In this document: positions 32,167-49,162 of the stretch, in pieces
Layout of the letters: each line of letters begins with the position of its first letter
How positions within the stretch are numbered: the first letter of the stretch is position 1
Source of the DNA: Candidatus Pacearchaeota archaeon
GTDB lineage: Archaea; Nanobdellota; Nanobdellia; Pacearchaeales; UBA284
Assembly: GCA_038886195.1 (NCBI GenBank)
Contig: JAVZYK010000001.1
Span: forward strand, 529,106 to 593,105
Length of the DNA stretch: 64,000 bases
Reading direction: 5' to 3'
Notes under the pieces: generated by a model
Databases searched by the model: none
Told to the model about the DNA's origin: nothing
Seen by the model: the letters and a program-made list of their open reading frames with translations, nothing else
Program-made: the position numbers and the translations under genes

Positions 32167-32227
32167 AAATATTGCTAATAAATAAGAAAAAATTAAAAAG
32201 TATCTTTTTCTAATTTTTTATAAATGC

Positions 32228-32315: not shown

Positions 32316-32335
32316 TTAACAGAATAGGAATTGAA

Positions 32336-33616: not shown

Positions 33617-33650
33617 AAAAGTTTAAGAAGGTTTTTTAATTAGATTTATT

Positions 33651-34034
33651 ATGATAAAAATATATGAAATTGAGCCAAATAATTTACAAAAGATAAAAAA
33701 TATTCTTGAGGCTCCAGACAGTGTTACAAATGAACTTGATTTCGAGATTGAAAAAGAGCAGGGTAAGGGAGTTATGGAGAAAGCAAAAGAATGGAAAATT
33801 AATGAATGGAAAAAAAATGGCTATATTTTAAGAGATGCTAAAGCTTTGGGAATTAATAAAAAAGTAAGTTTCTTGTATGTCTCTGCTTCAGAAGATTTTT
33901 TTGAGAGAAATGAAAAAAACATCATTGATTTGGGAGCAAAACCTCTAAGTGGCGAAGATTATGAGAATGTTAAAAATAAAATAGAAGAAAGTGAGGAAGA
34001 GGTGGCCGAAGGTCTTGGTTTCATTTTTAGTTGA
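33651..34034 (+). CDS. Hypothetical protein
   Basis: 127 aa, acidic C-terminus; no motif recognised. Confidence 0.35.
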   Translation: MIKIYEIEPNNLQKIKNILEAPDSVTNELDFEIEKEQGKGVMEKAKEWKINEWKKNGYILRDAKALGINKKVSFLYVSASEDFFERNEKNIIDLGAKPLSGEDYENVKNKIEESEEEVAEGLGFIFS

Positions 34035-34037
34035 GAG

Positions 34038-34556
34038 ATGGCAAAAAATAAAAATAAATCAGATATTTTAGAAAAAATTATTGTTAATGAAGCAATTGAC
34101 GAAACATTTTCTTGTGATTTTAAAGAAGACTTATATTCTGGAGGAAAAAATTTGACAATAAAATTTGAACTTGAACCTGAAGATGTATTGTATAGCCTTT
34201 GTTTTCAAAAGAAAATAAGTTTTGAAGATTTAAGTAACTTATTTGATTGGTTTGAACGAGAAAATAAAATATATGTTATAAGTAAAAAATTCAATGCGAA
34301 TTTAGAATTGTTAAGAAAAATGTCCAATAAACAAATAATGGAGTTTTTCAAAAATCATTACGATATCAAATATTTCTCTTATAATTTTTGTGGAAAAGAA
34401 ATTTATTTTTTCAGTTATTTAGAATCGAACACATCTTATCCGTATTATGGTAATAAAAAAGCAAATAGGATAGCTAAAAAAGGCATTTTTGATGAACAAA
34501 ACTGTAAAAATCTTATTTATTGTGCCGCAAGATACAAAGCAGACCACCGCTTTTAA
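34038..34556 (+). CDS. Hypothetical protein
   Basis: 172 aa; no motif recognised. Confidence 0.35.
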   Translation: MAKNKNKSDILEKIIVNEAIDETFSCDFKEDLYSGGKNLTIKFELEPEDVLYSLCFQKKISFEDLSNLFDWFERENKIYVISKKFNANLELLRKMSNKQIMEFFKNHYDIKYFSYNFCGKEIYFFSYLESNTSYPYYGNKKANRIAKKGIFDEQNCKNLIYCAARYKADHRF

Positions 34557-34632
34557 TTAAATCAGGTTTTTAAAAACTCAATCTTTTTAAATCGCATTTT
34601 CTTAGATATTTTTGAGTTGGAAGAAATGGAAA

Positions 34633-34705
34633 GGACCCGTGGTCTAGTGGTTAAGACGCAACCTTGACGTGGTTGAAATCGCTGGTTCGACTCCAGCCGG
34701 GTCCA
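34633..34705 (+). tRNA. tRNA-Val (anticodon GAC)
   Basis: GGACCCG acceptor; anticodon stem CAACC/GGTTG with loop TTGACGT; T-arm GCTGG-TTCGACT-CCAGC; discriminator A. Confidence 0.8.
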
Positions 34706-34743
34706 TCTATATAAAAATATAAAAAGAAACAAAAAGTAAAAAA

Positions 34744-35091
34744 ATGGCGAAAGAAGATAAAAAAACAAAAGAGGATGAAGATAAGATTTTTGCCTTTTTG
34801 TGTTATTTGATTTCAATAATTGGAGTGATTATTGTTTTGGCAACTAAAAAAGAAAGGACAGAGTTCAGCATTTATCATGCAAAACAAGGTTTGGTTTTGT
34901 TTATAACATGGATAATTCTTTGGGTAATTACAGTGGTTTTGGCTTTTATACCTGTTTTGGGATGGATAATTAACATAGTGATTTGGGCTTGTTTAGTTTT
35001 GCTGTGGATTTTAGGAATGATAAATGCGCTAACAGGAAAGAAAGTTCCATTGCCAGTAATAGGTGTTTTTGGAGAAAAATTTAATTTTTAG
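34744..35091 (+). CDS. Small membrane protein (DUF4870-like)
   Basis: 'IFAFLCYLISIIGVIIVLATKKERTEFSIYHAKQGLVLFITWIILWVI' fits the YLISIIG/HAKQ pattern of that family. Confidence 0.4.
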   Translation: MAKEDKKTKEDEDKIFAFLCYLISIIGVIIVLATKKERTEFSIYHAKQGLVLFITWIILWVITVVLAFIPVLGWIINIVIWACLVLLWILGMINALTGKKVPLPVIGVFGEKFNF

Positions 35092-35171
35092 AGATAACTA
35101 ATATTGGAGAGTAAAGAATTTAAGCAAAAAAACTTATTTAAGAAAAAAAAATAAAAGAGGCAAAATCTGAA

Positions 35172-37040
35172 ATGCCTTTACAAAAGAAAGCACAAGTTTC
35201 GCTATTTATAATTATAGCCATAGTTATTGTAGCTGTTGCTTTATTGATTTTTTTTATTTTAAGAGCCAGAGTAGCTGTTTTGCCATTAAATGTTCAGCCA
35301 ATTGAATCTTATTTTAAAGATTGTATCGATTTAAAGATTAAAGAAGCTACACAAGTAGCAGGATTGCAAGGCGGTTACATTGAACTGCCTGCATTTGAAG
35401 CAGGTTCTAGCTATATGCCCTTTTCTAATCAGTTGAATTTTTTAGGAATTTCTATTCCTTATTGGTTTTATATTTCAGGAAATAATGTGGTTAAAGAACA
35501 GAGGCCATCTTTGGAAGAGATAGAGAAGCAATTTTCAAAATATTTAAAAGAAAGAATTAAAGAGTGCGATTTTGCTGGCTTTAAAGAGCAAGGATATTTA
35601 GTTAATTTTTCAGGGGAACCTCAAATAGATGTTACAATTAAAGCTTCATCTATCGAAACTATTGTTTATTGGCCTTTAAGCATAGGTTTTGGCGAGGAAA
35701 TTGCCACTATTTCAGAACATAAAATTTCTACTAAAAGCAATTTTGGTTCATTATTTAATGACGCTTCTACAATATTTGATTATCAGCAAGAGAAATTTTT
35801 CTTAGAAAATTATTCTTTAGATGTTTTAAGACTCTATGCGCCAGTAGATGGTATAGAGATTAGTTGTGCTCCAAAAATTTGGCAAAAATCACAAGTTGAA
35901 AATGAAACAAAAAAAGCTTTAGAAGCTAATTTGGCTTTTATTAAGGTGAAAGGCACAGATTATAATTTAGCAAAGGAGCAAAACAGATATTTTGTTATTG
36001 ACACTGGTAAAAATATAAAGAGCAATGTAAATTTTTTATACAATCCTTTGTGGCCTTCTCGTTTTGAAATCTGGCCAAGCGAAAATGATTTTATGATTGC
36101 AGAACCTATTGGAATGCAGCCAGGCTTGGGAATTCTTAGCAGTTTTGGTTTTTGTTATGTTCCTTATCATTTTGTTTATGATGTTTATTTTCCTGTTGTT
36201 GTACAATTGACAAAAGGAAATGAGTTTTTTCAATTTCCTATCGTTGTGGTTATTGAAAAGACACAAATTAGAAATGCGACTATTGCAGAAGTGGGTAAAG
36301 TTGTTTTTGATATATGTAATTATAAAACTCAAAGCGCTACTTTTTTCAGTTATGATGAGAATTTAAATCCTTTAGAAGCAGAAGTTTATTTCAAATGCTT
36401 TAATCAAATATGTAATTTAGGCAAAACTAAAATGGAAGAAGGCAAATTTAGATTAGATGCCAACTTACCAAGATGCTATAATGGATTTATCATTGCAAAA
36501 GCTCCAGGTTTTAGAGAGAGAAAAATACAATTTACAACAACAGAACCATTTGTTATGAATCTATTTTTAGCACCTTTGCATGAGCTTGAAATAGAAATTC
36601 CAGATTTAAAAACTGGAGAATATGCTTTAATTAGTTTCATTTCTTCAGATTATAGTTTCAATTTATATTATCCTGAACAAAAAAGAATTAATTTAAGTGA
36701 AGGGAATTATAATATTTCAGTTTATGTTTTTAAAGAATCTTCAATAACCTTAGAATCACAAAAAGGGGAAAGTTGCATAAAAATGCCATCTTCGGGCATT
36801 GCAGGCATATTTGGCGGCATGGAGGAACAATGTTTTGAAGTTGAATTGCCTCAACAATCTTTCACTAATGTTTTATTTGGCGGAGGCAAAGTTCCTTGGA
36901 GTATTACAGAATCTGAGCTGAAAGGAAAATCAAAATTGATTATAGAAATAGAAAAATTTTCAGTCCCTAGAACTTTAAATGAACTTACAGATATTTACGA
37001 CTTGATTGAAAATGCTCAAGTTAATGTTCAACTTAGATAA
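35172..37040 (+). CDS. Large membrane-anchored extracellular protein, unknown function
   Basis: Signal anchor 'VSLFIIIAIVIVAVALLIFFIL'; 622 aa. Lies immediately upstream of the giant protein. Confidence 0.4.
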   Translation: MPLQKKAQVSLFIIIAIVIVAVALLIFFILRARVAVLPLNVQPIESYFKDCIDLKIKEATQVAGLQGGYIELPAFEAGSSYMPFSNQLNFLGISIPYWFYISGNNVVKEQRPSLEEIEKQFSKYLKERIKECDFAGFKEQGYLVNFSGEPQIDVTIKASSIETIVYWPLSIGFGEEIATISEHKISTKSNFGSLFNDASTIFDYQQEKFFLENYSLDVLRLYAPVDGIEISCAPKIWQKSQVENETKKALEANLAFIKVKGTDYNLAKEQNRYFVIDTGKNIKSNVNFLYNPLWPSRFEIWPSENDFMIAEPIGMQPGLGILSSFGFCYVPYHFVYDVYFPVVVQLTKGNEFFQFPIVVVIEKTQIRNATIAEVGKVVFDICNYKTQSATFFSYDENLNPLEAEVYFKCFNQICNLGKTKMEEGKFRLDANLPRCYNGFIIAKAPGFRERKIQFTTTEPFVMNLFLAPLHELEIEIPDLKTGEYALISFISSDYSFNLYYPEQKRINLSEGNYNISVYVFKESSITLESQKGESCIKMPSSGIAGIFGGMEEQCFEVELPQQSFTNVLFGGGKVPWSITESELKGKSKLIIEIEKFSVPRTLNELTDIYDLIENAQVNVQLR

Positions 37041-37083
37041 ATAAAAAATAGAATAAAAAGAAAATAAAAAACAGGAAATAAAA

Positions 37084-40000
37084 ATGAAAAGAATAGTTTT
37101 AATATTTTTTGTAGTTTTATTTTCAATTGTATTAATTAGAGCTCAAAATTTGCCTTTAGAAACTCTTCAAACGCCTTCTCCTCCTTCAGAATTTTATCAG
37201 AGTTTAGAAGCTTCGCCTTATCTTTATCCTAGTTATGAATCCAATCCTTGGATGCAGACACAATGGCAACAAGACTATTGTAATAAAACTGGAATGGACT
37301 TTTTAGTTATGATTGAGCCTTCTGCTTGCTCTCCAGCAGTTGTAAGAAGCGATTTGCTTGAAGAAGAAGATGTTCCTGTGCTTTGCAGGATGACTGCCGT
37401 TAAGATCAATCCTTTGATTCAAGTTCCTTATATTAAAAGCATTATTCCTACTGTAGAGAACAAATCTAATGAAATAGGGTTTGTTAATTTTATTCCTGCC
37501 AGGATTGCTTTGAGTTATGCTGCTCCTTTTGATAAAAAAAACGCAAACTTTGAGGGCGTGCCCACAATGAACAATTTAGGTTATTTATGGATACAATTGA
37601 AACAACAACCAACAGAATCGAAAATGCCAGATAATGTAAAAGTAAATATGTCTGTTAAGATAAAATACGATGTTGCAAGAACTTATGGAATTGTAGAAAA
37701 TCAGTTTGTATTGCCCTTGTTAAATCAGGATGAATGGCAACAACGTTACAAAGAATTTGGATTTTGGCGTGGAAAAGGCTACCTTAGATTACAAGAAGTT
37801 ACTGGGCCCAATACCGCGAAAATTGCCATTTACACAAATCCAAATAGTGCGCCGATTAGAGTTGTAGAACTTAGAGAAGGCGCTGATCCAAGTTTAAAGG
37901 ATGAAATAAAATTGCCAGGATTTTATTGCGGTGCAGGCGTTAGATTGAAACTTGATAAAATAACTACTCCAACAACAAGGGTAAGGCTATTAGTTAATGG
38001 AAACGAAATGGTTTTAGAAGGTGGAGACTATATTGGAGATTCTGGCTGTAAAGTTGATTTTATTAGTTCTAGTTCGAGTTATGGTGGCAGTGTAACTATA
38101 TGGTGTCCTACTGAAAGCAGAGTTTTAACAATTAAAGATCACAGTGCTCAAATACAAATAGAGGATGATGTTTTTGAAGCAGCAGTAGGAACTGAATTGA
38201 ATTTTAGTTTAAAAGAAAATAAAACAGGACATATTTATGTTGGTTTTATTGGTAAAGAATATAGCACAGAGGGCTTTACTGATTTTGTTTTGCTTTTCAG
38301 CAAAGGCAAAGATTATGAATCTATAAAAGAAGGAGATTCTAAAAAAATAATAAATGAAATTAACGAATATATTAAAAGAAATAGAGGAGCCAATTTAGAT
38401 GTATCTTATACCGAAACTCGATGGGTAACCGAATTAAAGAACTTTATAAAAGATAAACCTTATGCTAGGAATTTGAATTTTAATATCTTAAAACTTGGAA
38501 CGACAATAGAAATTGAAGGTCATAGATTTAAAGTTTTATCAGTTTCGGGTCCTGAACAAGTTTATTATACAAAAGACGTAGAAGCTCGTTATAAAGAAGC
38601 TATACAACGATGGAGAGATCTATCTTATGCTTATGCCAATCAACCAAGCCCTCAGGGATCTTATTATGGAGTTATTGCTTTAAGAAATGCGGCGAACTTG
38701 GCAAAAGATATGCATAAGAGAATAGATGAAGCTGAGTTGCTTAGAGAATTGATAAATAAATATGCTTCAAGTGAAGAACCAGAAATTATTGCAGAGGTAG
38801 ATGCTGCTAGAGAGGATCTAAGAAGAGCGACATTTGGTGGCAATAGAGTTACTTCAATAATGACTTCAATGGGAAGTTATTCTATAGAACTTATATCTAT
38901 AGAAAAACCAGGATTGGGAACAAAAGAAGCAAGAGTAGAGATTAATGATAGTCCTGCTGTATTGATAATTGATGATAATGTGGATAGCTGGGATGTTATC
39001 GATATTACAGAAAATAGTGTTAAATTTAGAAATGCTTCAAATGTAGAAGAAACTATTTCTGTTGGAAATTATAAATATTTAGGAAACACGAAAGTAAAAG
39101 TTTTAGGAACAACATTGAAAAGAGAAGCCAAAGTAACCATTTTGCCTTTTGAAAAAGAAAGAGAAACTATAACTAATTTTAGCGTTCAAATAGGTATCGA
39201 AAAAAGAGCCATAAAACTTGCTCCGGAAAAAACCAATGAACTTATAGAAAAATTGAACAAACAAATAGCAACTTTAGAAAACGTGAAAAATAACTTAGAA
39301 AAAATACTTTCTGTGTGGAGAAAAGCCTGTTTTGTTACTGCAGGAAGTTTATGGATTAAAAATTTTGTTACTGGATTGAGCGGTGAAGCTTACGCTAGAA
39401 AAATAGCGATGAAATCTTGGACTAAAGCCTGTGCTGACGTTGGCTTTAGACGAGAAATTAATGCTAAGAGTATTTCTGATTGTTACAGAATTAAAGAAAA
39501 AGAAATTAATGATGATATAAAACTTGTAAAAGAGGCGGTTAATAAAGCAAACAAATTCATTAAAGAAGTAAAGTCAGTAGAAGGGGTTCAAGTCAGAGGC
39601 GGCTTGTTTGGATTAAGTCAGATGACCGATGATAAAAAATTTATGGAAGTAGCTCAAAAGAACTTTCCATCTGATTTAAAAAATATTGAAATTTATGAGT
39701 ATAAAGAATTGCGAAGAATTACTAAAGGAGATGGCAAAATCGAATTTAGAGGAGAAATTTTTGATGATATAGATTCTTTATATGCGAAATATAAAGATGT
39801 TGACAGAAGCGAAGTTGCAAAAGTATTAGAAAGAAAAGTAACCTCTGGAGAGATTGTTTCAAAGATTGATGTGCTTTATAAAAATAATAGACTTTTCAAA
39901 GATGATGTTAAAGAACTTGTAGTAGATTTAGAACTTTATAAACAATGTCAAGAAAAACAATCTGTTTTATGTGAAGATATATTTAAAGGAAGTTTTGGCA

Positions 40001-43000
40001 AATCAATTGAGATGGCAAATTTTGTTAACGAAATTAATGAAATTAATGAATTCTACAATGATTTTGGGTTCAATAAAGTAATAATTAGAGCTAAAGAAGC
40101 GATGACTATAAAAGCTCCTATAAGAAAAGCAGATAATGATTTTATCAACAAAATAGATTTTAATAATTTTGAAAAGATTTCTAATGACGAATTATTTGCA
40201 GTTTTTTATATTGGCGGTGCTGATTATATTGCGATAGTTGAAAGAGCAGAAGGCAACAGATTTAGTATCAAAAGACTTTATCAAATTTATAAACAAGGAA
40301 CTGGTTGGCGTGTAAAAGAATTTTATAATGTTAGTACAACTCCTAGTTTGGCGGCAAAACTTAACGAACTTCAAATTTCTGATATTCAAGAAATCGATGT
40401 AAGTTTATGTAATAATAATGAAATAAAGTCTCCTCATAATAAAGAGATAAAATTCTGGGAGTCTGGACCTTACAACGGATTTGTTGCCTGGATGCCTATA
40501 GATGTTAATAATGGATGGTATATGGCAACGATGAGTTATAGTGGATTAGAAGGAGCGATGATTGCCTGGAAAGAAAATGCAGATATAAATACATTTTGGA
40601 TTTGTAATGTAGGGCCTGACGGCATTCCTAATTTTGATCATACACAAGGACCTAAAGGAGATGATTGTTGTACGCAAGTTGTTTTAGCTACTGGTTTTAT
40701 TCCTGAAATTGCTGGTTGCATTACTCCAGCGTGTTCTGATACTCTTGTAAAAAAAGCAAAAAATTGTGCAGCTAAAGCAATAAGAGATTTTGCAGCAGGC
40801 AATAAAAAAATAGTTACAGAGTGTGGCAATTTTAATTTAGGAAAGCCTCCAAGTGCTGTGCCAGCAAGGCAGTGTGAAGATTTCATGAGTCCAACTGATT
40901 GTAGAATTATGTATAATGTTTGTGATCCTGTGATGTGTCCTGCGTCTAGATGTGATTTTGGTGGCAGGATGTCTGTAGAAAATGTAGTACAATCAGGAAT
41001 TATAGGAAGTATAATGTTGTGCTTGCCGAATTTCGAAGATGGTAAAGGTGTTCTAGTTCCTGTTTGCTTGACAGGAATACATGCAGGTATAGAGAGCTTC
41101 ATTGGAGTTCTAAAAGCTGGTCGTGATTGTTTACAAGAACAATTGAAGAGCGGCAAAACTGTAGGTATTTGTGATCAAATAATGTCTATTTATATTTGTG
41201 AATTTTTTTGGAAGCAAATGGATCCTTTTTTAAAACAAGGAATTCCTGCTATTACAGAATCATTAATAGGAAGGGGTGGTGGAGAATATGTTTTGTTTAG
41301 CGAATCATGGAAACAGAGCATTGATGCAGCAAGATACTTTACAGATTATTATGCTGTAAATTCAGTTAAAGCATTCAAAGCCAGAAGCACAGCACAACTA
41401 GGAACAGAAATTTGTAAAAGATATGCTAGCATAGCTTATCCTACTCAAGCGAAATTCTGGGAAGAACTGGCAAAGCCTGAAAGTCCTACACAAGCCACTG
41501 CATGCTTCCAGGAAATTTCTATGGGAACTGCAACTCCTGAATCGCATTATAAAGTTTTCATTTACATTTTTGCTGGCAATGACCAAGGAGTTTATTATAG
41601 TGTTGTATTAAGAAGACCTGCAGCTCCCGGTTATTATGGACAATTCATTCCAGAAGAATATTTAGTTAAAGACGGATTTGGTTATTTGCCTGCTGGTCAA
41701 TATTTGGCCATATCTCCTGATTTCAGAGCTCCTAGCGGTTATAAAGAAATATGCATAAGACTTAATGATAAAGAAATATGCGGTTTTGGAGATTGTGCTA
41801 GCACTAGTTTCGCTATTCAAGAAATGCAAAATTATTATTTGAAACATCAACTTGAACAGGAAGTTTCTTCAATTAAAGAGTGTGTGAGTGGAAAGCCTAC
41901 GATTATGCCTACTCTGACATTAAATATACAAAGTGCAGTTGAACATGCTTTAGAGCCTCAGTTGTATAGAAGAGGCATTATAAGAGTATGCTCAACTAGC
42001 AATCCTGGAGAAAGCGTCGGTGAAAAAGATAGATGGAAAAAGATAGGTTATTGCGGTGACAAAAATGTTGGCTGTTGGCTTGATATGAATAGTGTAAATG
42101 AAAGTATTAGCGATTTAGGAATTAGAGCAGAAATTTATAATAAGTCAGAAGAGAGAGATCTTGCAAGATTGCTCGAGGAATTTAATTTAAGCACTCCTAA
42201 AGAAAGCCAGAACGCTTTAGACAATCTTGAACCAAAAATTATTAATTTAGAAAAAGAAATTGACGAGTTTATAAAGGAAATAAAAAATAAGAATCCAGAA
42301 GAGCTTAAAAATACCAAAGCACAGATTGAAAATAAAATTAAAGAAATCGATAACAAAATTTTGCCATTAATTAAAGAATTCAAAGCAATTAAAGACAAAT
42401 GTGCAAGAAATGAAGAAAAAGCCAGGGCAGAAAATAACATAGCAAAATTATATGATTTGAGAGCAAGACTTTATGCACAGCCGGAAGTTTTTGTTGTTGA
42501 ATTAACTGCAATAAAAAAGAAAAGTTGTGAAGCTCAAGGAGGTGGATGGTATGAAAAATGTCCTCAAGGATATTTTGAAATAACCGACGCGAGCGATGCA
42601 AATGAATATCCTGGCAAAAAATGTTGCAAGATAATTGAAACAAAAGTTGAAATAGGCGAAACCTTTGATTGGCCTTTAGATGATTATTATTTAATAACTT
42701 CTTGTTATGGCTATAGAACTTTAGACGGAAAAAAAGATTTTCATGATGGAATTGATATTTATGCACCTAAAGGAACTGTAGTTCGTGCGATAGCAAGTGG
42801 AGAAGTTATTAAAGCAGATAATTTTTGTGGAGAAAATAATGTGAATTGCAATAGCGGTTTTGGAAATAGAGTTGTTATAAAACATGCTGATAATTTTTAT
42901 AGCGCTTATCATCATTTAAGTAAAGTTCATGTAAGTGTTAATGATAAAGTAAAAAAAGGAGACAAAATAGGAGAAGTTGGAAATACCGGTTACAGTACTG

Positions 43001-44448
43001 GTTCACATCTTGATTTTAAAGTTTATATAAACTCACAAGATATTGAAAAGGAAGATGCTGGAAAACATCCTTTGTGTTTCTTTCCTAGGGATATATTATA
43101 TAGAATAGGAGTTGATTCTGAAGCTGTGAATAATTTTAATAATTATAGTGAAAATAAAGAATATGGAGGTTGTATACCTAACGAGAGTTATTGTGATAAA
43201 TTGTTAGAAGAGATCCCTAAGGAAACTGGTATAATATCTAGAGTTTTTCTTGTTTCAAAAGTCAATAATGGAAATTTTGGATTAGGGAATAGATTAGTTG
43301 ATTATGAAGATGATGTTAAAATTTGTGCTGTAATTAAAATAGGAGAAAACTATTATTCCTACGAGAATTTTAATTTGAATAATAACATTCAAGTTGAAAG
43401 ATACAACGGCAATTTGAATTTTAATTTTAGATGGTATAATATTGTTCCTTATCAGAAGCCTACTGATGGAAATGGAAGGCCCTATAAAGTTGCCAATTTT
43501 GAAGAAAATGGCGAGCATTACTGGGACCTTATTCAATATCAACAAAAAAAATTGTCAGAAAATGGTTGGTGTATAAATCAAACAGAAGTTAATCCTCGTG
43601 AAGGAACATATTGGTATAGGGTTGAAGTTGAAGTTAATGGCATTATATATTCTTCATTAGGAAGGCCGGCAACGGCTCAAGATAAATATGAATTTGAAGA
43701 TGATCTTTATTATTGTGGAAATGGTGCAATAAATTTTGATAGATACAATAACATATGGAATACTCTTTTAGAACCAAGAGCATATGAAGGTTGTGTTGGG
43801 ATAAGTAGAGAGGTAATGAGAATAAGCAGGAAGTCAAATTATAGTGAAACTATTTGTGTTCAAAACGGTTATGATTCTAATCACATAAGATGTAAATTTT
43901 TATCTACAGTAGAGGCATTTAAAAATGTTCCTTTTGCTTATGGCGTTGATTTTTATGATAATTATAGAGAACATCATTCTAAGAATTTTATTGCTATAGA
44001 TTGTGTGGATTTGATGCTTTCTTCTTTAAGTCATGCTACAGGAAAAGATTTATATCAGGAGCTTAAAGAAGAAAATAGATTATTTGAAGGATTTATTAAG
44101 AAAAACAATATATTTAAACAGGATAATGTCAATAAGGTAGAAAAATGGAATATCAATGTTATTTTAGGATCGCAATTGCCTTTTAATCAATTCGCAAGAA
44201 GCACTTTGGAAATAGGAGATATTTTGTTTCAATTTGATGAAAAAAAAGGAGTTTATGATAATACTCTAATTCTTTATAGCGATAAAAATAGAAATAAAAT
44301 TTTAGATAGAGATGATTTAGTGATTTGCGCAAATTCTGATTGTCATCAAGGTGATTTGCATCAAGGTGATTTGTGTTTATTGAGACCTGATTACTATAGC
44401 GGTAATTTTACGATAGTTAAACCTAATTCTTTATCTTTGCCGAGTTGA
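37084..44448 (+). CDS. Giant secreted protein (2454 aa) with Cys-rich module, coiled coil and M23/LytM peptidase domain
   Basis: Signal peptide 'MKRIVLIFFVVLFSIVLIRAQN'. M23 signature 'DFHDGIDIYAPKGTVVRAIASGEV...GNRVVIKHADNFYSAYHHL...GEVGNTGYSTGSHLDFKV' at nt ~42650..43040. Cys-dense region at ~40600..41250. K/E-rich coiled coil at ~42130..42480. Confidence 0.8.
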   Translation: MKRIVLIFFVVLFSIVLIRAQNLPLETLQTPSPPSEFYQSLEASPYLYPSYESNPWMQTQWQQDYCNKTGMDFLVMIEPSACSPAVVRSDLLEEEDVPVLCRMTAVKINPLIQVPYIKSIIPTVENKSNEIGFVNFIPARIALSYAAPFDKKNANFEGVPTMNNLGYLWIQLKQQPTESKMPDNVKVNMSVKIKYDVARTYGIVENQFVLPLLNQDEWQQRYKEFGFWRGKGYLRLQEVTGPNTAKIAIYTNPNSAPIRVVELREGADPSLKDEIKLPGFYCGAGVRLKLDKITTPTTRVRLLVNGNEMVLEGGDYIGDSGCKVDFISSSSSYGGSVTIWCPTESRVLTIKDHSAQIQIEDDVFEAAVGTELNFSLKENKTGHIYVGFIGKEYSTEGFTDFVLLFSKGKDYESIKEGDSKKIINEINEYIKRNRGANLDVSYTETRWVTELKNFIKDKPYARNLNFNILKLGTTIEIEGHRFKVLSVSGPEQVYYTKDVEARYKEAIQRWRDLSYAYANQPSPQGSYYGVIALRNAANLAKDMHKRIDEAELLRELINKYASSEEPEIIAEVDAAREDLRRATFGGNRVTSIMTSMGSYSIELISIEKPGLGTKEARVEINDSPAVLIIDDNVDSWDVIDITENSVKFRNASNVEETISVGNYKYLGNTKVKVLGTTLKREAKVTILPFEKERETITNFSVQIGIEKRAIKLAPEKTNELIEKLNKQIATLENVKNNLEKILSVWRKACFVTAGSLWIKNFVTGLSGEAYARKIAMKSWTKACADVGFRREINAKSISDCYRIKEKEINDDIKLVKEAVNKANKFIKEVKSVEGVQVRGGLFGLSQMTDDKKFMEVAQKNFPSDLKNIEIYEYKELRRITKGDGKIEFRGEIFDDIDSLYAKYKDVDRSEVAKVLERKVTSGEIVSKIDVLYKNNRLFKDDVKELVVDLELYKQCQEKQSVLCEDIFKGSFGKSIEMANFVNEINEINEFYNDFGFNKVIIRAKEAMTIKAPIRKADNDFINKIDFNNFEKISNDELFAVFYIGGADYIAIVERAEGNRFSIKRLYQIYKQGTGWRVKEFYNVSTTPSLAAKLNELQISDIQEIDVSLCNNNEIKSPHNKEIKFWESGPYNGFVAWMPIDVNNGWYMATMSYSGLEGAMIAWKENADINTFWICNVGPDGIPNFDHTQGPKGDDCCTQVVLATGFIPEIAGCITPACSDTLVKKAKNCAAKAIRDFAAGNKKIVTECGNFNLGKPPSAVPARQCEDFMSPTDCRIMYNVCDPVMCPASRCDFGGRMSVENVVQSGIIGSIMLCLPNFEDGKGVLVPVCLTGIHAGIESFIGVLKAGRDCLQEQLKSGKTVGICDQIMSIYICEFFWKQMDPFLKQGIPAITESLIGRGGGEYVLFSESWKQSIDAARYFTDYYAVNSVKAFKARSTAQLGTEICKRYASIAYPTQAKFWEELAKPESPTQATACFQEISMGTATPESHYKVFIYIFAGNDQGVYYSVVLRRPAAPGYYGQFIPEEYLVKDGFGYLPAGQYLAISPDFRAPSGYKEICIRLNDKEICGFGDCASTSFAIQEMQNYYLKHQLEQEVSSIKECVSGKPTIMPTLTLNIQSAVEHALEPQLYRRGIIRVCSTSNPGESVGEKDRWKKIGYCGDKNVGCWLDMNSVNESISDLGIRAEIYNKSEERDLARLLEEFNLSTPKESQNALDNLEPKIINLEKEIDEFIKEIKNKNPEELKNTKAQIENKIKEIDNKILPLIKEFKAIKDKCARNEEKARAENNIAKLYDLRARLYAQPEVFVVELTAIKKKSCEAQGGGWYEKCPQGYFEITDASDANEYPGKKCCKIIETKVEIGETFDWPLDDYYLITSCYGYRTLDGKKDFHDGIDIYAPKGTVVRAIASGEVIKADNFCGENNVNCNSGFGNRVVIKHADNFYSAYHHLSKVHVSVNDKVKKGDKIGEVGNTGYSTGSHLDFKVYINSQDIEKEDAGKHPLCFFPRDILYRIGVDSEAVNNFNNYSENKEYGGCIPNESYCDKLLEEIPKETGIISRVFLVSKVNNGNFGLGNRLVDYEDDVKICAVIKIGENYYSYENFNLNNNIQVERYNGNLNFNFRWYNIVPYQKPTDGNGRPYKVANFEENGEHYWDLIQYQQKKLSENGWCINQTEVNPREGTYWYRVEVEVNGIIYSSLGRPATAQDKYEFEDDLYYCGNGAINFDRYNNIWNTLLEPRAYEGCVGISREVMRISRKSNYSETICVQNGYDSNHIRCKFLSTVEAFKNVPFAYGVDFYDNYREHHSKNFIAIDCVDLMLSSLSHATGKDLYQELKEENRLFEGFIKKNNIFKQDNVNKVEKWNINVILGSQLPFNQFARSTLEIGDILFQFDEKKGVYDNTLILYSDKNRNKILDRDDLVICANSDCHQGDLHQGDLCLLRPDYYSGNFTIVKPNSLSLPS

Positions 44449-44459
44449 CTCTAATATTT

Positions 44460-44723
44460 CTAATATTGTCCGCCGTAAACGCCTTGACCTTGTCCTTTCT
44501 TTTTGGTTGGCATGTAAACGCCTTGACCTTGTCCTTTCTTTTTGATTGGTTTGTATGAACCAGATTCATAAACTATTGTTGGTTCTTCTCTAACTTTTTC
44601 TTCTATCGTTTTAGGCGCTGTAGCTCTTCCGATGTAAAAGGTTCCAGCTGCTACGCCTATTAAGATAGGCCATCTTGCTATTTTCCATATTCTATCCCAT
44701 CTAATTCTCATTTTATTTTTCAC
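44460..44723 (-). CDS. Small membrane protein with tandem KKKGQGQGVY repeat
   Basis: TM 'IARWPILIGVAAGTFYIG'; C-terminal twice-repeated 13-aa unit encoded by a 39-bp tandem DNA repeat. Confidence 0.4.
   Translation of the reverse strand: MKNKMRIRWDRIWKIARWPILIGVAAGTFYIGRATAPKTIEEKVREEPTIVYESGSYKPIKKKGQGQGVYMPTKKKGQGQGVYGGQY
44475..44552. repeat. Two tandem copies of a 39-bp direct repeat inside the 44460..44723 CDS
   Basis: 'gtaaacgccttgaccttgtcctttctttttg' recurs with a 39-nt period (44475 and 44514). Confidence 0.8.
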
Positions 44724-44793
44724 CTCCTAAAATATCAAAGAAAAACGTCTTTATAAATCTTTCGTTTTGTAGTAATCGTGCAGTGGTTACAAA

Positions 44794-44877
44794 TGCGGGG
44801 AGTAGGATTCGAACCTACGCAGGCACTAAGCCACATGGTCCTAAGCCATGCCCGTTTGACCACTCCGGCATCCCCGC
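44794..44877 (-). tRNA. tRNA-Leu (anticodon TAG), class II with long variable arm
   Basis: Reverse complement GCGGGGA...; anticodon stem CATGG/CCATG with loop CTTAGGA; extra arm; T-arm TAGG-TTCGAAT-CCTA; 84 nt. Confidence 0.8.
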
Positions 44878-44959
44878 TCAAAGTTATTTTTTAAAATAAA
44901 GTTTAACGACTTTTAAAAACTTTGTAAAGTTCTGAAGAATTTTGAAAGAAATCTTTAAT

Positions 44960-45283
44960 TTAAGATGCTGCTGTTGATGGTGAAATATAGATTATCGTGT
45001 CGCCACGTACAAAAGCCAACCCTATGTTTCTTTTAATTTCTCCGTTAACTAGTTCTTTTGTATTTTCTAGAACAATGTTGATATGTATGTCGAATGCCAT
45101 CAAAGTACCAACAAGCTGAGTGTCGTTTTTAAGAGTCACTAAAATTTCCTTTCCTTTTGACTGATTCAACAAATCTAAAGGTCTTTCAATTCCATTTCCC
45201 ATTTTAGTTTTTTCTTGCACAAGCAAGATTTCGTTTATTTTTAAACTTTTCTTCTTTTTCATTTTCTTGTCTTTGCTCACCAA
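44960..45283 (-). CDS. Sm-like (LSm) archaeal protein with Lys-rich N-terminal extension
   Basis: Sm1/Sm2 motifs 'ILVTLKNDTQLVGTLMAFDIHINIVLENTKE ... IGLAFVRGDTIIYIS'. Confidence 0.7.
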   Translation of the reverse strand: MVSKDKKMKKKKSLKINEILLVQEKTKMGNGIERPLDLLNQSKGKEILVTLKNDTQLVGTLMAFDIHINIVLENTKELVNGEIKRNIGLAFVRGDTIIYISPSTAAS

Positions 45284-45381
45284 ATTTTTTTACTTTAGTT
45301 GTCATTTTATAGTTATTACAATAGAAAAATTTAAAAAGGTCAAAAATCTCTAAATTTAGTTAAAAATTAAAATAAATTAAA

Positions 45382-46725
45382 ATGACAATAGCAAATTTTA
45401 TTTTGCCTTTATTTTTGATTAATGACATAGGTTATGAAATTAGAAACGACACTATATTTGTTCGAGCACACTTTTATCCAGAAGAAAAAACAATCTACAA
45501 TTCTGTAAATAATAAATTAAGAGCGTTAGAAAAACATTTAGAAAAGAAGACGGGAAAAGATTTGGTTTTTCCTAGCGCTAAGAAAGTTGTTGAAGAATGC
45601 GGGCTAGGCTGCATTCAGCCTTGTAATGATTACTTTTTTTTCCTGTATCCAAAATCACACAAAAAACCAATGCCAAAGCCGACACCAAAACCAACTCCGA
45701 AGCCAGCACCAAAAATTCCAGAAAAGATTGAAATTAAAATTCCAGATAGTTTAAAAGTAAAAGTGGATTTAGACACTCTGGTATTGAAAGTTCCTGATGT
45801 GTTGCCAGAATCTATAATAGTAAGACATGAAATTGCGGCGGATTCTACTTTGTTAAAATATTTAGAAGAACTTAAAAGACAAGTTAAAAGCGAAACTGTT
45901 TTTGTTGCTCCGACAGTTCCCACAATTCCAACTGTTCCAGATTCAAATAAAGCAGAGGAAGGATTTTTTGAAATAGACAATATTAAAGGAAATAGTTTTT
46001 ATATAGGAACTTTTTATAGAAAAGACAATCAGGAATTGTTGGTTTTTCCTTTAGGTTTTGATTTTAAAACACAAGGAAAAATTCGTTTTGATTGTGCCTT
46101 GGATTTATTGATTTTAAATTTGATTAATTCTAGCAATGAATTAACTAATAATGGTTTGGTTGATTGTCGCGCTGGAATTTATAATAAAAATTTAGGAGGA
46201 GGATTAGACTTTGTTGCAGATTCTAGTAGAGCTTTTTATTCTGGCATTTATGGAAAAGGAGCCTTGAGTTTAGGAAAACCGGTTGTTTATGGAATTGTAG
46301 GAGTAAACTTTAATTTGAATGGAAATAACGATAATAAGTACAGGCACTATGTTATTTCTGGAATAACTTATGAGGCCGGTTCAAGAAAATTTATGTTTAA
46401 TCTCGAAGGAAAAAGCAGTCATGATTTGTTGCAAGATAAATATTTGAATTCTGCAAAATTAGATTTAGGATTTGGAGACAAGACCAGATTGTTGGTGGGA
46501 ATTGGAGGCAAGACAGAATTGGATATGGAAACTATAGGGGATGCTACTTTTAAAGAATTTATGCAAAAAACAGAATTATCTGGAAGCATAGGAGCTGAAT
46601 GGCATTTAGATGAAAAAAGCAGTTTATATATTAAAGCAAGCACTAGTGGGAAGTGGAATGAAGATAGAGAATATAAAACAGTACAACAAGGTGTAGAAAC
46701 AGGAGTTAAATTTTATTTTAAGTAA
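45382..46725 (+). CDS. Hypothetical secreted protein with Pro/Lys/Thr linker and beta-rich C-terminal domain
   Basis: 'KKPMPKPTPKPTPKPAPKIPEK' low-complexity linker; Gly/aromatic-rich alternating C-terminal half. Confidence 0.4.
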   Translation: MTIANFILPLFLINDIGYEIRNDTIFVRAHFYPEEKTIYNSVNNKLRALEKHLEKKTGKDLVFPSAKKVVEECGLGCIQPCNDYFFFLYPKSHKKPMPKPTPKPTPKPAPKIPEKIEIKIPDSLKVKVDLDTLVLKVPDVLPESIIVRHEIAADSTLLKYLEELKRQVKSETVFVAPTVPTIPTVPDSNKAEEGFFEIDNIKGNSFYIGTFYRKDNQELLVFPLGFDFKTQGKIRFDCALDLLILNLINSSNELTNNGLVDCRAGIYNKNLGGGLDFVADSSRAFYSGIYGKGALSLGKPVVYGIVGVNFNLNGNNDNKYRHYVISGITYEAGSRKFMFNLEGKSSHDLLQDKYLNSAKLDLGFGDKTRLLVGIGGKTELDMETIGDATFKEFMQKTELSGSIGAEWHLDEKSSLYIKASTSGKWNEDREYKTVQQGVETGVKFYFK

Positions 46726-46730
46726 TTGTT

Positions 46731-47141
46731 TTGCAGTTTTTTAGAAAGATATTTAAATCACTGCAAGATATTTTTTTCATGCCAACTGGAAGAAAAATAA
46801 CTGGTGGAAAATATAAGAAATTCAGAAAGAAAAAGTTACATGAATTACAAAGACAACCAAGGTATGTTCTCTTAGGAGAAGAGAAAAAAAAGATAATTAG
46901 ATGCAGAGGTGGAAAATTAAAAACAGTTCTTCTTAGAACTAATAAAGCGAATGTTATGGATACTAAAAACCATAAAGCCAAAGTAGTCAAAATAGTGAAT
47001 GTTTTGGAGGTTCCTAGCAATAGATTTTTAGCAAGAAAAAACGTTCTTGTTAAAGGGGCAATAATCGAAACAGAAATAGGAAAAGCAAAAATAACTAATA
47101 GACCAAGTCAAGAAGCTTCTGTTGAGGCGGTTCTTATTTAA
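46731..47141 (+). CDS. rps8e: 30S ribosomal protein S8e
   Basis: 'TGRKITGGKYKKFRKKKLHELQRQP ... IRCRGGKLKTVLLRTNKANV' matches the S8e signature. The likely true start is the internal Met (MPTGRK, nt 46779). Confidence 0.8.
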   Translation: MQFFRKIFKSLQDIFFMPTGRKITGGKYKKFRKKKLHELQRQPRYVLLGEEKKKIIRCRGGKLKTVLLRTNKANVMDTKNHKAKVVKIVNVLEVPSNRFLARKNVLVKGAIIETEIGKAKITNRPSQEASVEAVLI

Positions 47142-47237
47142 GATTTATGTTTTCTATTTTTTTAAAAAGATTTAAAAATCTTTTCATAGAAAGATTTATA
47201 AAGCTTTTTTAACTCGCTTAAAGTGAATTAGTTTAAG

Positions 47238-48182
47238 ATGCCTACCACTTTTATAAAAAAATGCCCGGAATGTGGTTCTACAGAATTAATCTATGATGAG
47301 CAAAAAGGTGAAATAATTTGTTCGAAATGCGGACTTGTTGTTGAAGAAAAGATGATTGATTTAGGACAAGAGTGGCAGCAGTTTGAAGAAGGAGAGAAAA
47401 AAGGGAGAGGCGGCGCTCCATTGACAATGCAGAAATTCGATCAAGGTTTAACTACCAATGTTGGAGAAATTAGTGATATTTATCAGCTAGGTTCTGAAAA
47501 AAGAATTAGGAAATTTTTTAGACTTAAAAAATGGCAAGAAAGAGTTTCTACGAGCATTGAAAGGAATTTAAGATTGGCTATGGCAGAACTTCGTCGTGTT
47601 GCTTCTTTTTTGAATTTGCCAAACTTCGTTAAAGAAGAAGCTTCGAGAATTTATAATCTTGTATTGCAACGAGGACTTGTAAGAGGTCGTTCAATGGAAT
47701 CTGTAGTTTCATCTTGTATTTATGCTGCTTGCAGAATTTACAACATTCCTAGAACTTTAGATGAAATTTCAGCAGCAAGCGAAGTTGAAAGAAAAGAAAT
47801 AGGTAGAACATATCGTTTTATAGCCAGGAAGTTGGCATTAAAAATAGTTCCTAGCAGTCCTAAAGATTATATTGCTCGTTTCGCTACAATGTTACATCTT
47901 TCGCCTAAGACACAAAGTGATGCATTAAGAATATTGAAAAAGGCAGAAACATCTGAATTGACAAGTGGTCGCGGTCCTGCAGGAATTGCAGCAGCTGCCT
48001 TATATGTGGCGGCTTTACTTAACGATGAAAAAAAGACTCAGAGAGAAGTGGCAGATGTTGCAGGAATAACAGAAGTTACGATTAGAAATAGATATAAAGA
48101 GCTTTTAGAAAAATTAGGAATGGAAGAGAAGCTGAAAATTAAAGAAGCTGAAGCAAGAGCTGAAAAAGAGAAAAAGAAATAA
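47238..48182 (+). CDS. tfb: Transcription initiation factor TFB (TFIIB)
   Basis: N-terminal zinc ribbon 'CPECGSTELIYDEQKGEIICSKCG', B-reader/linker, and two cyclin-fold repeats. 314 aa. Confidence 0.9.
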   Translation: MPTTFIKKCPECGSTELIYDEQKGEIICSKCGLVVEEKMIDLGQEWQQFEEGEKKGRGGAPLTMQKFDQGLTTNVGEISDIYQLGSEKRIRKFFRLKKWQERVSTSIERNLRLAMAELRRVASFLNLPNFVKEEASRIYNLVLQRGLVRGRSMESVVSSCIYAACRIYNIPRTLDEISAASEVERKEIGRTYRFIARKLALKIVPSSPKDYIARFATMLHLSPKTQSDALRILKKAETSELTSGRGPAGIAAAALYVAALLNDEKKTQREVADVAGITEVTIRNRYKELLEKLGMEEKLKIKEAEARAEKEKKK

Positions 48183-48204
48183 AAACGTTAGATTTGAAAG
48201 GAAA

Positions 48205-49104
48205 TTATAGAGAAATTTTCATAAAATCTTTTGCTAAAAAACTGTTTTTGAAAGTTTTTTTTGCTTCTTCAAGAATCACGTTTTCTTTTTTGGCATAACG
48301 TTGAGAAAGATGCAGCAATATTAATTTTTCAACTTTAGCCTTTTTTGCTATAGTTGCCGCTTGTTGAGCGGTTAAATGACCTCGCTCTAAAGCTTTATTC
48401 AAATGTTCTTTATGTAAAAAAGTGGCTTCTGAAATAAGAATATTTGAGCCTTTTGCAGCTTTAATACAATTTTCATTATATAATGTATCGATAATAAAGG
48501 AAATTTTTCTACCTTTTCTTAAGGTCGTAACATCTTTGGCTTTTATTCTTTTTCCTTGATATGTTATGTTTTTACCTTCCTGTAATTGTTTTAATATTGG
48601 GCCTTGTTTTATTCCCAATTTTTTTATTTTATCAATATTTATTTTATATTTATCTTTTTCAACAAATTTATAAGCAAGACAAGGAGTGAAATGTTTCATA
48701 AAATGAGCTTCAATATAAAAGTCAGAAGTTTCAAGGAATTTTCCTTCATGTAGCAATTCGTGAATTTCTGTTTTTAACTTTTCTTTAAAAACAAAAGTTT
48801 TTAGAAGCAGACTGAAAAACTTTTTAGTTCCTTTCGGGCCATAAATATGTAAAACTTTAGAATAGTTATTTAAAGCAAGTGTTTGAATTAAGCCAGGCAG
48901 GCCAAGAACATGATCGCCATGCCAGTGTGTTATTAATATTCTAGTAATTTTACAAGGATTTAGTTTCGCTATCTTAAGTTGTCTTTGAGTACCTTCACCA
49001 CAATCTATTAGAATGTTTTCATTTTTGTAGTTTAAAAGTATGGCTAATTGATTCCTTTCTGGAGTAGGAGTTGCTTCACTTGTCCCTAGAAATGTGATTT
49101 CCAT
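48205..49104 (-). CDS. rnz: Ribonuclease Z (tRNA 3' endonuclease, metallo-beta-lactamase fold)
   Basis: 'ILIDCGEGTQRQL' and the 'ITHWHGDHVLGLPGL' HxHxDH motif; 299 aa. Confidence 0.8.
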   Translation of the reverse strand: MEITFLGTSEATPTPERNQLAILLNYKNENILIDCGEGTQRQLKIAKLNPCKITRILITHWHGDHVLGLPGLIQTLALNNYSKVLHIYGPKGTKKFFSLLLKTFVFKEKLKTEIHELLHEGKFLETSDFYIEAHFMKHFTPCLAYKFVEKDKYKINIDKIKKLGIKQGPILKQLQEGKNITYQGKRIKAKDVTTLRKGRKISFIIDTLYNENCIKAAKGSNILISEATFLHKEHLNKALERGHLTAQQAATIAKKAKVEKLILLHLSQRYAKKENVILEEAKKTFKNSFLAKDFMKISL

Positions 49105-49162
49105 AATTAATTTAATAAAGCAAGTTTTAAATATTTATCTTATTTTTTAGAAAGATAAAAAG

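Follow-up and report, generated by a model that had tools for sequence, protein, structure and literature searches.

The giant gene and its surroundings

The stretch of DNA that was analysed (64 kb, hereafter the window) carries a giant open reading frame (37084..44448, + strand) that encodes 2454 aa plus a stop codon in one unbroken frame and occupies 11.5% of the window by ORF call. At ~30% GC, a chance origin of a frame of this length is not possible. The original prediction had described a continuous frame of 7.4 kb covering more than 11% of the window, and this was confirmed: an independent assembly holds the same gene, with aa 1-1800 being 100% identical, and over 70 homologues, 1800-3000 aa long, are full-length; together these rule out a frameshift or chimera artefact. 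A Sec-type signal peptide was placed by sequence at aa 1-20 (37084..37143, + strand), with predicted cleavage at IRA|QN. As had been claimed, the signal is recognisable: no stretch of the protein other than the N-terminus (MKRIVLIFFVVLFSIVLIRA|QN) is strongly hydrophobic, and the homologues carry equivalent Sec-type signals ending in A|Q. The protein, which has a signal peptide and lacks a membrane or wall anchor, is predicted to be secreted and is probably located outside the cell or at its surface.

Judged by sequence comparison, the protein divides into a conserved scaffold (the first ~1700 aa), which 76 homologues (E of 1e-113 or lower) cover, and a variable cassette as its tail, a division not observed before. 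The N-terminal scaffold module (aa ~60-860; 37261..39663, + strand) is covered by 65-76 of the 76 homologues and contains the invariant motifs CxPAVVRSDLLEE and GIEKRAIxLSPEKT as well as a TPR-like stretch; its sole PDB profile match was a weak one to BamD (TPR, E 1e-3). It is followed by a poorly conserved middle linker (aa ~861-1099; 39664..40380, + strand), where coverage falls to ~50 of the 76, and by the conserved core that defines the family (aa 1100-1700; 40381..42183, + strand), a Cys-rich, moderately hydrophobic helical region between two confident beta-sandwich-like domains. Within the core, the Cys-rich segment (aa 1174-1372; 40603..41199, + strand) contains 17 Cys and not the approximately 30 in 200 aa that had been counted earlier. 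This corresponds to a Cys content of 8.5%, against 2.4% in the entire protein, and ten of the 17 are invariant in the family (C1264, 1273, 1280, 1285, 1290, 1313, 1328, 1349, 1363 and 1372). Outside the signal peptide, four of the protein's most hydrophobic segments lie close together at aa 1199-1375.

The scaffold runs into a K/E-rich coiled-coil-like helical stalk (aa ~1690-1805; 42151..42498, + strand; 27-31% K+E) with profile matches to the coiled coils of EnvC, MacA, GCN4 and Rad50, in agreement with the 120-aa K/E coiled coil described earlier. PDB profile searches with the family alignments returned M23, coiled-coil and weak BamD matches only and gave no homologue of the scaffold. No confident fold beyond the beta-sandwich domains and no interpretable overall fold was obtained for the scaffold, and the label 'adhesin scaffold' in the original prediction gained no direct support.

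Directly upstream lies a gene for a 622-aa protein (35172..37040, + strand) whose first residues, MPLQKKA|QVSLFIIIAIVIVAVALL, are arranged like an archaeal class III (type IV pilin-like) signal, with a short charged N-region, KKA|QVSLFIIIAIVIVAVALL and a hydrophobic helix. A homologue of this partner (600-650 aa, ~620) was found on the same strand and directly upstream of the giant gene in 64 of 64 related loci with enough flank, and the two genes overlap by 4 bp in 30 of these, which suggests that they are often translationally coupled. The motif [KR][GAS]Q[VIL][ST][LIF]F followed by a hydrophobic helix is strict in 56 of the 64 partner orthologues, and the others carry near-variants. Searches of the partner against Pfam, NCBIfam and PHROG gave no match, pilin and class III signal families included; the designation pilin-like is taken from the N-terminal motif alone. 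A constant pilin-like partner directly upstream of the giant gene is a new observation.

A second protein of pilin-like type, with a canonical SLT domain, is encoded in the same window (17004..18116) inside a cluster of pilin-like genes, and this too was not observed before. A T2SSE ATPase is also present, and no prepilin peptidase was identified within the window. Pfam did not support the neighbouring small proteins as pilins or a 721-aa membrane protein as a PilC-like platform. The genes around the giant gene include TFB, GINS, L44e, S3Ae, LSm, RadA and the tRNA-splicing endonuclease, in keeping with the archaeal source that had been proposed, and the syntenic Pacearchaeota genomes measure 0.58-0.71 Mb, as expected for the small-genome lineage that had been assumed. 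An archaeal chromosomal context that is syntenic in genomes of this size indicates that the giant gene belongs to the vertically inherited core and not to a mobile element.

The M23 domain, the C-terminal tail and the exchangeable cassette

The domain at aa 1886-1987 (42739..43044, + strand) was assigned to Pfam Peptidase_M23 (PF01551, MEROPS M23) with an E-value of 1.7e-27 and 95.9 bits, against a cutoff of 28.7, so that the domain passed the profile search suggested as a check. At E below 1e-3 it matched 38 M23 chains in the PDB, the best of which by sequence were zoocin A, lysostaphin and LytM (E 8e-17 to 1e-10), and searches against NCBIfam and PHROGs gave matches in the M23 region only. 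The M23 signature, previously described as canonical, holds in part. Its HxxxD motif (H1887-D-G-I-D1891) aligns with HVGVD of zoocin A and the YHHL His (H1943) is present, but the HxH motif reads HLD (H1975-L-D1977), with Asp where zoocin A (HLHF) has its third zinc-ligand His. Four of the five catalytic or ligand residues are consequently canonical; of the zinc ligands to be inspected, H1887 and D1891 were found, and the third, expected as the final H of SHLDF, is Asp (D1977).

This Asp is strictly conserved in ~9 relatives that are mutually only ~50% identical, and in five of the nine HLD-type relatives the first ligand His is replaced by Thr. HxH is kept in all nearest bacterial M23 domains and in the allele of a sister strain; a word-indexed search restricted to the M23 domain returned 12 matches, which were bacterial M23 proteins only and all HxH. 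The HxD subtype may represent a metal site that is new to peptidase family M23. With Asp as third ligand, Thr as first ligand in relatives and HxH in bacteria, the domain could also be a non-catalytic binding module of the dLytM type, and catalytic competence is uncertain for both the M23 domain and the NlpC/P60-like domain described below.

Compared with zoocin A, lysostaphin and LytM, the domain shares HxxxD, the YxHL His and the first His of HxH; it differs in the Asp at the third zinc ligand, in an extra Cys-containing insertion (NFCGENNVNCNSG), in the lack of an SH3b or zoocin target-recognition domain and in its position inside a 2454-aa archaeal protein. The order of coiled coil and then LytM, with profile matches over both and an incomplete metal site, resembles EnvC, NlpD and DipM, which are periplasmic division regulators in bacteria that make their own murein. 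EnvC is a non-catalytic activator, and degenerate LytM factors have usually lost several active-site residues; EnvC and NlpD lack most ligands, whereas one is replaced in the window domain.

Downstream follow an N/Y-rich Ig-like beta-sandwich region (aa ~2050-2190; 43231..43653, + strand) and a C-terminal domain (aa ~2225-2454; 43756..44445, + strand). The Asn/Tyr-rich, beta-like tail of the original prediction was recovered, with an N+Y content of 20-27% in aa 2001-2300 and mostly beta structure in the first half of the AF2 model. The C-terminal domain was modelled with a papain-like alpha+beta fold of NlpC/P60 type, and the C-terminus of the giant protein thus appears from the model to hide Ig-like domains plus an NlpC/P60-fold domain, which is a new observation. 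Its C2307 is invariant in 19 of 19 sequences; at the putative His position, placed by motif order, the window protein (N2393) and its five closest relatives have Asn, and 13 of the 19 have His. Pfam returned no NlpC/P60 match for the domain even at E up to 10, and hhalign against an approximate sequence of E. coli MepS and against the canonical NlpC/P60 tail of another locus (L016) gave a probability of 0.3-6%, with the Cys and the GD(I/L)LF motif aligned in the same comparisons. By modelled fold the domain would be comparable to the NlpC/P60 superfamily, including the DUF1460 amidases (PDB 2im9, 2p1g), from which it differs in its lack of sequence-profile significance and in Asn in place of His.

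The M23 domain is part of an exchangeable cassette (aa 1808-2050; 42506..43233, + strand) composed of a Cys-containing linker, M23, a PLCFF motif and a further linker. Alignment (blastn) to the corresponding locus of the sister strain (L001) showed no DNA similarity in the cassette and 99.94% identity in the flanks. Windowed protein identity between the two alleles is 14-48% in aa 1801-2050, against 100% in the surrounding scaffold, and the cassettes share 37% amino acid identity by BLASTP. Each is closer to cassettes found elsewhere, that of the window to P0002 and P0003 (53%) and that of the sister strain (GCA_038885395.1), in which the M23 domain is fully canonical (HLHF), to P0008 (49%). 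The 1.2 kb downstream of the cassette are 3% divergent, with 13 amino acid changes between the two strains. Different M23 cassettes thus occupy the same position in two near-identical strains, a swap that is reported here as a new observation. Metagenomes were scanned with the exact flanking DNA of the swap junction and for near relatives of the window M23 cassette; neither was found, nor did the two scans yield a donor or further alleles. In its conserved N-terminal body, its recombining C-terminal cassette and its alleles that differ between near-identical strains, the family may be likened to Rhs/CDI polymorphic toxins and phage receptor-binding proteins. Unlike the polymorphic toxins, the giant gene has no immunity gene or toxin domain, and its cassette is of wall-hydrolase type.

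Distribution and tail variety of the family

The giant protein matched 1027 clusters at 50% identity, and at least 546 species genomes matched the family. Among the 80 genomes listed, the labels were Pacearchaeota, Woesearchaeota, Nanoarchaeota and unclassified 'archaeon', with one Aenigmarchaeum, which suggests that the family is specific to Pacearchaeota and Woesearchaeota. These two groups are among the most abundant uncultured archaea, and it may be chiefly through this family that they deal with bacteria.

All hydrolase domains of the family lie C-terminal to the scaffold. In 76 species loci, the tail domains were SLT (14), M23 (7), Amidase_3 (4), NLPC_P60 (2) and glucosaminidase (2), with GH3, Amidase_6 and DUF2272 in addition, and VanY was also found among family tails. 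SLT occurs in 12 of the 76 homologues, and those that bear it match the window protein, itself without a Pfam SLT match, at E=0 to E-200. In the relatives P0005-P0007, an Amidase_3 domain accompanies a degenerate M23. At least eight domain families of peptidoglycan hydrolases contribute cassettes and, by their assignment, would jointly attack bacterial murein at its glycan, amide and peptide bonds; with so many murein-specific hydrolase domains across the tails, bacterial peptidoglycan is the most likely target. About half of the family has tails without a Pfam-detectable hydrolase, so wall cleavage may not be its core function.

A family of 'large extracellular murein lytic-transglycosylase proteins' was described by Castelle et al. 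2021 as fam00969 (PMC8204110), a type first noted in Woesearchaeota AR20 (Castelle 2015). By the described size, taxa and SLT domain, the giant protein is presumably a member. Both share the taxa (Pacearchaeota and Woesearchaeota), a length of 2000-3000 aa, predicted secretion, a homologous scaffold and the suggestion that they bind or degrade bacterial walls; the window member differs in having M23 and the cryptic NlpC/P60-fold domain where SLT is described. The published accounts of fam00969 that were consulted give the SLT domain only and mention neither exchangeable cassettes nor a swap between strains nor a pilin-like partner (PMC8204110). A host-interaction hypothesis for the family is already in print (PMC8204110, PMC9723730, PMC10936187), and the host-interaction role that was originally proposed for this protein matches it (PMC8204110, PMC9723730).

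Proposed role and competing explanations

We consider it probable that the giant protein is a surface scaffold with a swappable, murein-directed warhead and a pilin-like tether, used at contact with bacteria. In this proposal the protein would be secreted to the cell surface, where the ~1700-aa scaffold, made up of the N-terminal module, the beta-sandwich domains and the ultra-conserved Cys-rich core, would present an exchangeable warhead on the coiled-coil stalk. The warhead of the window would consist of an M23 endopeptidase-type domain with an H/D/D metal site, the Ig-like domains and then the NlpC/P60-fold domain. The ~620-aa protein with the type-IV-pilin-like N-terminus, probably co-transcribed, would most likely tether or present the giant protein at the cell surface, since the latter has no anchor of its own. 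At the contact with a host or prey, the warhead would bind, and probably locally cleave, the peptide cross-links of bacterial peptidoglycan, which may permit attachment, envelope breaching or nutrient release. Recombination would replace warheads even between near-identical strains, probably in adaptation to different or evolving bacterial wall chemotypes. For the giant protein we infer that it interacts with the partner, acts on murein, is catalytically competent and takes part in host contact; penetration and a host are likewise presumed.

A further-reaching version is possible, and we hold it only tentatively: partner and scaffold would form a lineage-wide, vertically inherited wall-breaching organelle, with warheads that set the bacterial host or prey range and a moderately hydrophobic, ultra-conserved Cys-rich core (aa ~1195-1465) that becomes membrane-active once the wall is opened. 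If this were true, Pacearchaeota and Woesearchaeota would be obligate episymbionts or predators of bacteria, and warhead alleles would be a readable marker of host specificity. The recombining cassette, the strain-level difference and the constant partner turn the annotation 'large lytic transglycosylase' into testable hypotheses, namely that the cassette type tracks the peptidoglycan chemotype of co-occurring bacteria, that time-series metagenomes show allele turnover and that the partner tethers the giant protein.

It is rather doubtful, by comparison, that the protein is a peptidoglycan-binding adhesin only, with a dLytM-like M23 and an NlpC/P60 domain (Cys without His) that are both catalytically dead, hold murein and leave the cutting to other proteins such as the pilin-like SLT protein (17004..18116). 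HxD instead of HxH, the first-ligand Thr in five of nine HLD-type relatives, HxH in all nearest bacterial domains and N2393 where most relatives carry His agree with such an adhesin, as do the order of coiled coil and LytM, which resembles that of the non-catalytic activator EnvC, the combination of degenerate M23 with Amidase_3 in P0005-P0007 and the separate canonical SLT protein in the window. However, H1887, D1891, H1943 and H1975 are kept where degenerate LytM factors usually lose several residues, an Asp that is strict in ~9 sequences of only ~50% identity suggests a functional metal site, and the canonical HLHF of the sister-strain allele implies selection for enzymatic function at the cassette position. 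An artefact was considered as well, through chimeric assembly or through fusion or frameshift of the ORF, and a mis-join is possible in principle given a cassette wholly unlike that of a near-identical genome; this is effectively refuted already, as the frame runs on through both cassette junctions, both alleles are built alike (Cys-containing linker, M23, then PLCFF), the full-length layout is common to more than 70 homologues and the window allele has relatives of its own (P0002 and P0003).

A freely secreted scavenging or antibacterial (bacteriocin-like) enzyme, which would digest peptidoglycan of dead or competing bacteria in the medium to gain amino acids and sugars or would act as a weapon, and which would have no role in host attachment, is unlikely. 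The signal peptide without a membrane or wall anchor would fit a diffusible enzyme, Pacearchaeota have been suggested to draw amino acids from necromass peptidoglycan (PMC11537232), and peptidoglycan hydrolases of another archaeal lineage were shown experimentally to kill bacteria (PMC12352652). Such an enzyme would hardly justify a 1700-aa scaffold in more than 1000 clusters, a coupled pilin-like partner in 64 of 64 loci and ~1.3% of a 0.6-0.7 Mb genome spent on the gene pair, and many family members have no detectable hydrolase. Very improbable, finally, is a target in the envelope of an archaeal host (pseudomurein, S-layer) or in the cell's own envelope rather than in bacterial murein. To our knowledge all cultured DPANN live on archaeal hosts, and the conserved housekeeping genes nearby point to a core function in the cell, with an EnvC-like coil and LytM that recall cell-division factors. 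Against this, the cassettes, including SLT, Amidase_3, glucosaminidase, VanY and GH3, act on MurNAc glycan or D-amino-acid peptides, which as far as we know are absent from pseudomurein and S-layers, and the window yielded no genes for murein synthesis.

An origin from a phage tape-measure protein or a mobile element was also considered and rejected, as NCBIfam and PHROG matches are confined to M23 and the housekeeping synteny is conserved. In phage tail lysins and Gram-positive conjugation hydrolases, hydrolase modules open the wall locally. The giant protein resembles phage tape-measure and tail-tip lysins and the conjugation hydrolases PrgK, CwlT and TcpG in combining a long helical or structural protein with variable C-terminal hydrolase modules, and PHROG tape-measure and endolysin families match its M23 region. 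It differs from them in having no homology outside M23, and in being encoded by a chromosomal, vertically inherited gene with housekeeping synteny and a Sec signal.

Integrity and family of the giant gene

The giant gene is one uninterrupted frame of 2454 codons (37084..44448, + strand), as originally predicted, and since stops are frequent at the window's GC content of ~30%, the frame is not a chance one. A chimera or frameshift, which had been named as a possible refutation, is contradicted by the same gene in an independent Pacearchaeota MAG (GCA_038885395.1, locus L001) and by 76 homologues of 1400–3000 aa with the same layout. The proposed secretion signal was recovered as N-terminal MKRIVLIFFVVLFSIVLIRA/QN, the only strongly hydrophobic segment of the protein, and homologues carry equivalent Sec-type signals ending A/Q. 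The K/E-rich helical stretch claimed as a coiled coil (aa ~1690–1805) and the Asn/Tyr-rich tail are also present, but the Cys-rich segment (aa 1174–1372) contains 17 Cys, not the ~30 claimed.

Domains were divided using BLAST coverage across the 76 homologues and alignments, giving a conserved N-module (aa ~60–860), a variable middle region (aa ~860–1100), a highly conserved core (aa ~1100–1700; 10 invariant Cys from C1264 to C1372, motifs including CDPVxCPxSRC and RGGGEY), a helical stalk and, in a subset of homologues only, a tail. Searches of PDB profiles, NCBIfam and PHROGs found no known relative of the scaffold (the first ~1700 aa). With the core alone (aa 1100–1720) as query, 1027 clusters (50% identity) are matched, of which 889 reach E ≤1e-30; nearly all of the 150 cluster matches listed are 1800–3000 aa long, the exceptions being shorter, probably partial sequences. 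At least 546 species-representative genomes are matched, and the 80 listed are labelled Pacearchaeota, Woesearchaeota, Nanoarchaeota or unclassified 'archaeon', with one Aenigmarchaeum.

Archaeal housekeeping genes (GINS, L44e, S3Ae, TFB, tRNA-splicing endonuclease, SRP54, RadA and FtsZ) flank the giant gene, with LSm and S8e also seen at syntenic related loci, and complete or near-complete Pacearchaeota genomes of 0.58–0.71 Mb repeat this neighbourhood. This marks the giant gene as chromosomal and inherited vertically in a DPANN archaeon with a small genome, in agreement with the earlier assignment.

The ORF is thus real and its family has already been flagged. Castelle et al. 2021 (PMC8204110) described fam00969, specific to Pacearchaeota and Woesearchaeota, with proteins of up to 3000 aa and a murein lytic-transglycosylase domain, and proposed that these attach to bacterial host walls or break them down; the same idea recurs in Vigneron 2022, Takamiya 2024 and a 2024 mBio paper (PMC9723730, PMC11537232, PMC10936187). 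Peptidoglycan hydrolases, M23 among them, were noted in Nanoarchaeota by Strock et al. 2025 (PMC12352652), who also showed by experiment that haloarchaeal M23 proteins kill bacteria. Because the fam00969 idea is in the literature, the host-interaction reading is essentially a published hypothesis; new here are a tail built as a cassette, its swap at strain level, an atypical M23 site, a predicted NlpC/P60-fold domain and a universal pilin-like partner.

Tail cassette and M23 site

Pfam domains of the homologues always lie C-terminal to the scaffold and vary in type between relatives, comprising M23, Amidase_3, SLT, glucosaminidase, VanY, M10 plus SLT, or ankyrin repeats. In a set of 76 species loci, post-core tails measure 75–1555 aa (median 390), and Pfam assigns SLT to 14 of them, M23 to seven, Amidase_3 to four, NLPC_P60 and glucosaminidase to two each, and GH3, Trypsin_2, DUF2272, Amidase_6 and ankyrin repeats to one each; to over half of the tails it assigns nothing. 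Together the detectable domains are predicted to attack murein glycan, amide and peptide bonds. Since they appear murein-directed, and SLT, Amidase_3, glucosaminidase and VanY are not known to find a substrate in pseudomurein or S-layers, bacterial peptidoglycan is the most probable target.

The cassette (aa ~1808–2050) differs sharply between the window and L001, the near-identical sister strain. L001 DNA is 99.94% identical to window 27084..42505 and about 99.9% (99.83–99.94%) to 44392..51589, and between 42506..43233 and the corresponding 692 nt of L001 blastn finds no similarity. At the protein level identity is 100% over aa 1–1800, 37% in the cassette and ~95% in the rest. The 15.4 kb upstream of the cassette contain only 7 mismatches; the 1.2 kb downstream are 3% divergent, with 20 mismatches producing 13 amino-acid changes, and this C-terminal tract includes a five-residue tandem duplication, HQGDL-HQGDL (~44344..44373, aa 2421–2430), where the sister strain reads CHR-----GNLCLL. 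Among the homologues, P0002 and P0003 have the cassettes most similar to the window's (53%), and their scaffolds are 71–76% identical to the window protein; the L001 cassette, with a canonical HLHF motif, is most similar to that of P0008 (49%). The effector end of the gene has been replaced by recombination between near-identical strains, a pattern typical of host-range or arms-race determinants.

The predicted M23 domain was found by Pfam (Peptidase_M23, aa 1886–1987, E 1.7e-27) as the sole domain of the giant protein, but its signature is not the canonical one expected. Where zoocin A has HVGVD...YAHLS...GPHLHF, the aligned residues here are HDGID...YHHLS...GSHLDF: the first two motifs align, and the third zinc ligand is Asp1977, giving H1975-L-D1977 (HLD) against the HxH of all nearest bacterial M23 proteins. 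HLD is kept in ~9 family members, their M23 domains ~50% identical to the window's; in all of them the residue following the first ligand position is Asp (xDGID), and in five Thr replaces the first ligand His. Because the variant is conserved, this putative metal site is remodelled and not a product of random decay. The main rival explanation is that the window's giant protein binds peptidoglycan only, without cleaving it. On balance we favour, with some reserve, a surface-presented device targeting bacterial walls.

The AF2 model of aa 2000–2454 is good (pLDDT 79, pTM 0.81), and the family alignment follows the NlpC/P60 motif order VPFAYG, IDC, GDILF, HTxIxY, with Cys2307 invariant and the His position occupied by Asn (N2393) in the giant protein and its five nearest relatives. 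From this fold and motif order only, with no support from Foldseek, Pfam or hhalign, the protein is suggested to end in a cryptic NlpC/P60-fold domain.

Two other tail arrangements were observed. At L003 (CP070794.1) the giant gene stops after the scaffold, and the next ORF downstream (14905..16836, 643 aa, with a faint M23 match) separately encodes the tail, so scaffold and warhead (the effector tail) appear split into two genes. In the tails (aa ~1900–2260) of the homologues P0005, P0006 and P0007 a degenerate M23-like domain without ligand residues is directly followed by Amidase_3, recalling the activator-amidase pairs of bacteria, EnvC/NlpD (dLytM) with AmiA/B/C, although here both form one chain.

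Partner, pilin-like genes and neighbouring loci

The 622-aa partner (35172..37040, + strand) has no protein-family match, yet in all 64 loci with sufficient flank an orthologue immediately precedes the giant gene, overlapping it by 4 bp in 30. The partner begins with KKA/QVSLFIIIAIVIVAV, for which the conserved pattern is [KR][GAS]Q[VIL][ST][LIF]F followed by a hydrophobic helix; from this motif, without profile support, we infer a class III signal of the archaeal, type IV pilin-like kind. The giant protein itself lacks an anchor, which makes the partner the most evident candidate for tethering it.

At 11068..18721 the window has a cluster of genes for small proteins whose N-termini look pilin-like. 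It includes a second putative peptidoglycan hydrolase, a 370-aa SLT protein (17004..18116, − strand; Pfam SLT E 8e-19; ES, GLMQ and AYNTG motifs), whose N-terminus, MNINKKG...ILEIILAIMIIIILIF, resembles a type IV pilin signal. Its neighbours (11068..11871, 11855..12352, 12822..13172, 15040..15942, 18153..18371 and 18338..18721, all − strand) have similar N-termini, [KR][GA] plus a hydrophobic helix, and the SLT protein is therefore apparently a pilin-fused lytic transglycosylase. A 763-aa T2SSE-family ATPase (PilB, FlaI or VirB11-like; 4049..6340, − strand) and a 721-aa polytopic membrane protein without a Pfam match (20335..22500, − strand) are possible motor and platform of a pilus-like system.

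Downstream of the giant gene, a 447-aa ORF (45382..46725, + strand) has no family match and joins a proline-rich linker, PKPTPKPTPKPAPK, to a C-terminal half rich in Gly and Asn; it occupies the same position in L001 and is missing from the more distant syntenic loci L002–L004. L001 carries an extra 2.76-kb segment (19699..22461), absent from the window at ~46734..46742, which codes for a D12-class DNA methyltransferase and four small ORFs and is a strain-specific island or indel. The tRNA-splicing endonuclease gene is located at 49163..49762. An 88-nt tRNA (32228..32315, + strand; Rfam 63.9 bits), given by ARAGORN without anticodon ('tRNA-???'), may contain an intron or depart in some other way from typical archaeal tRNAs.
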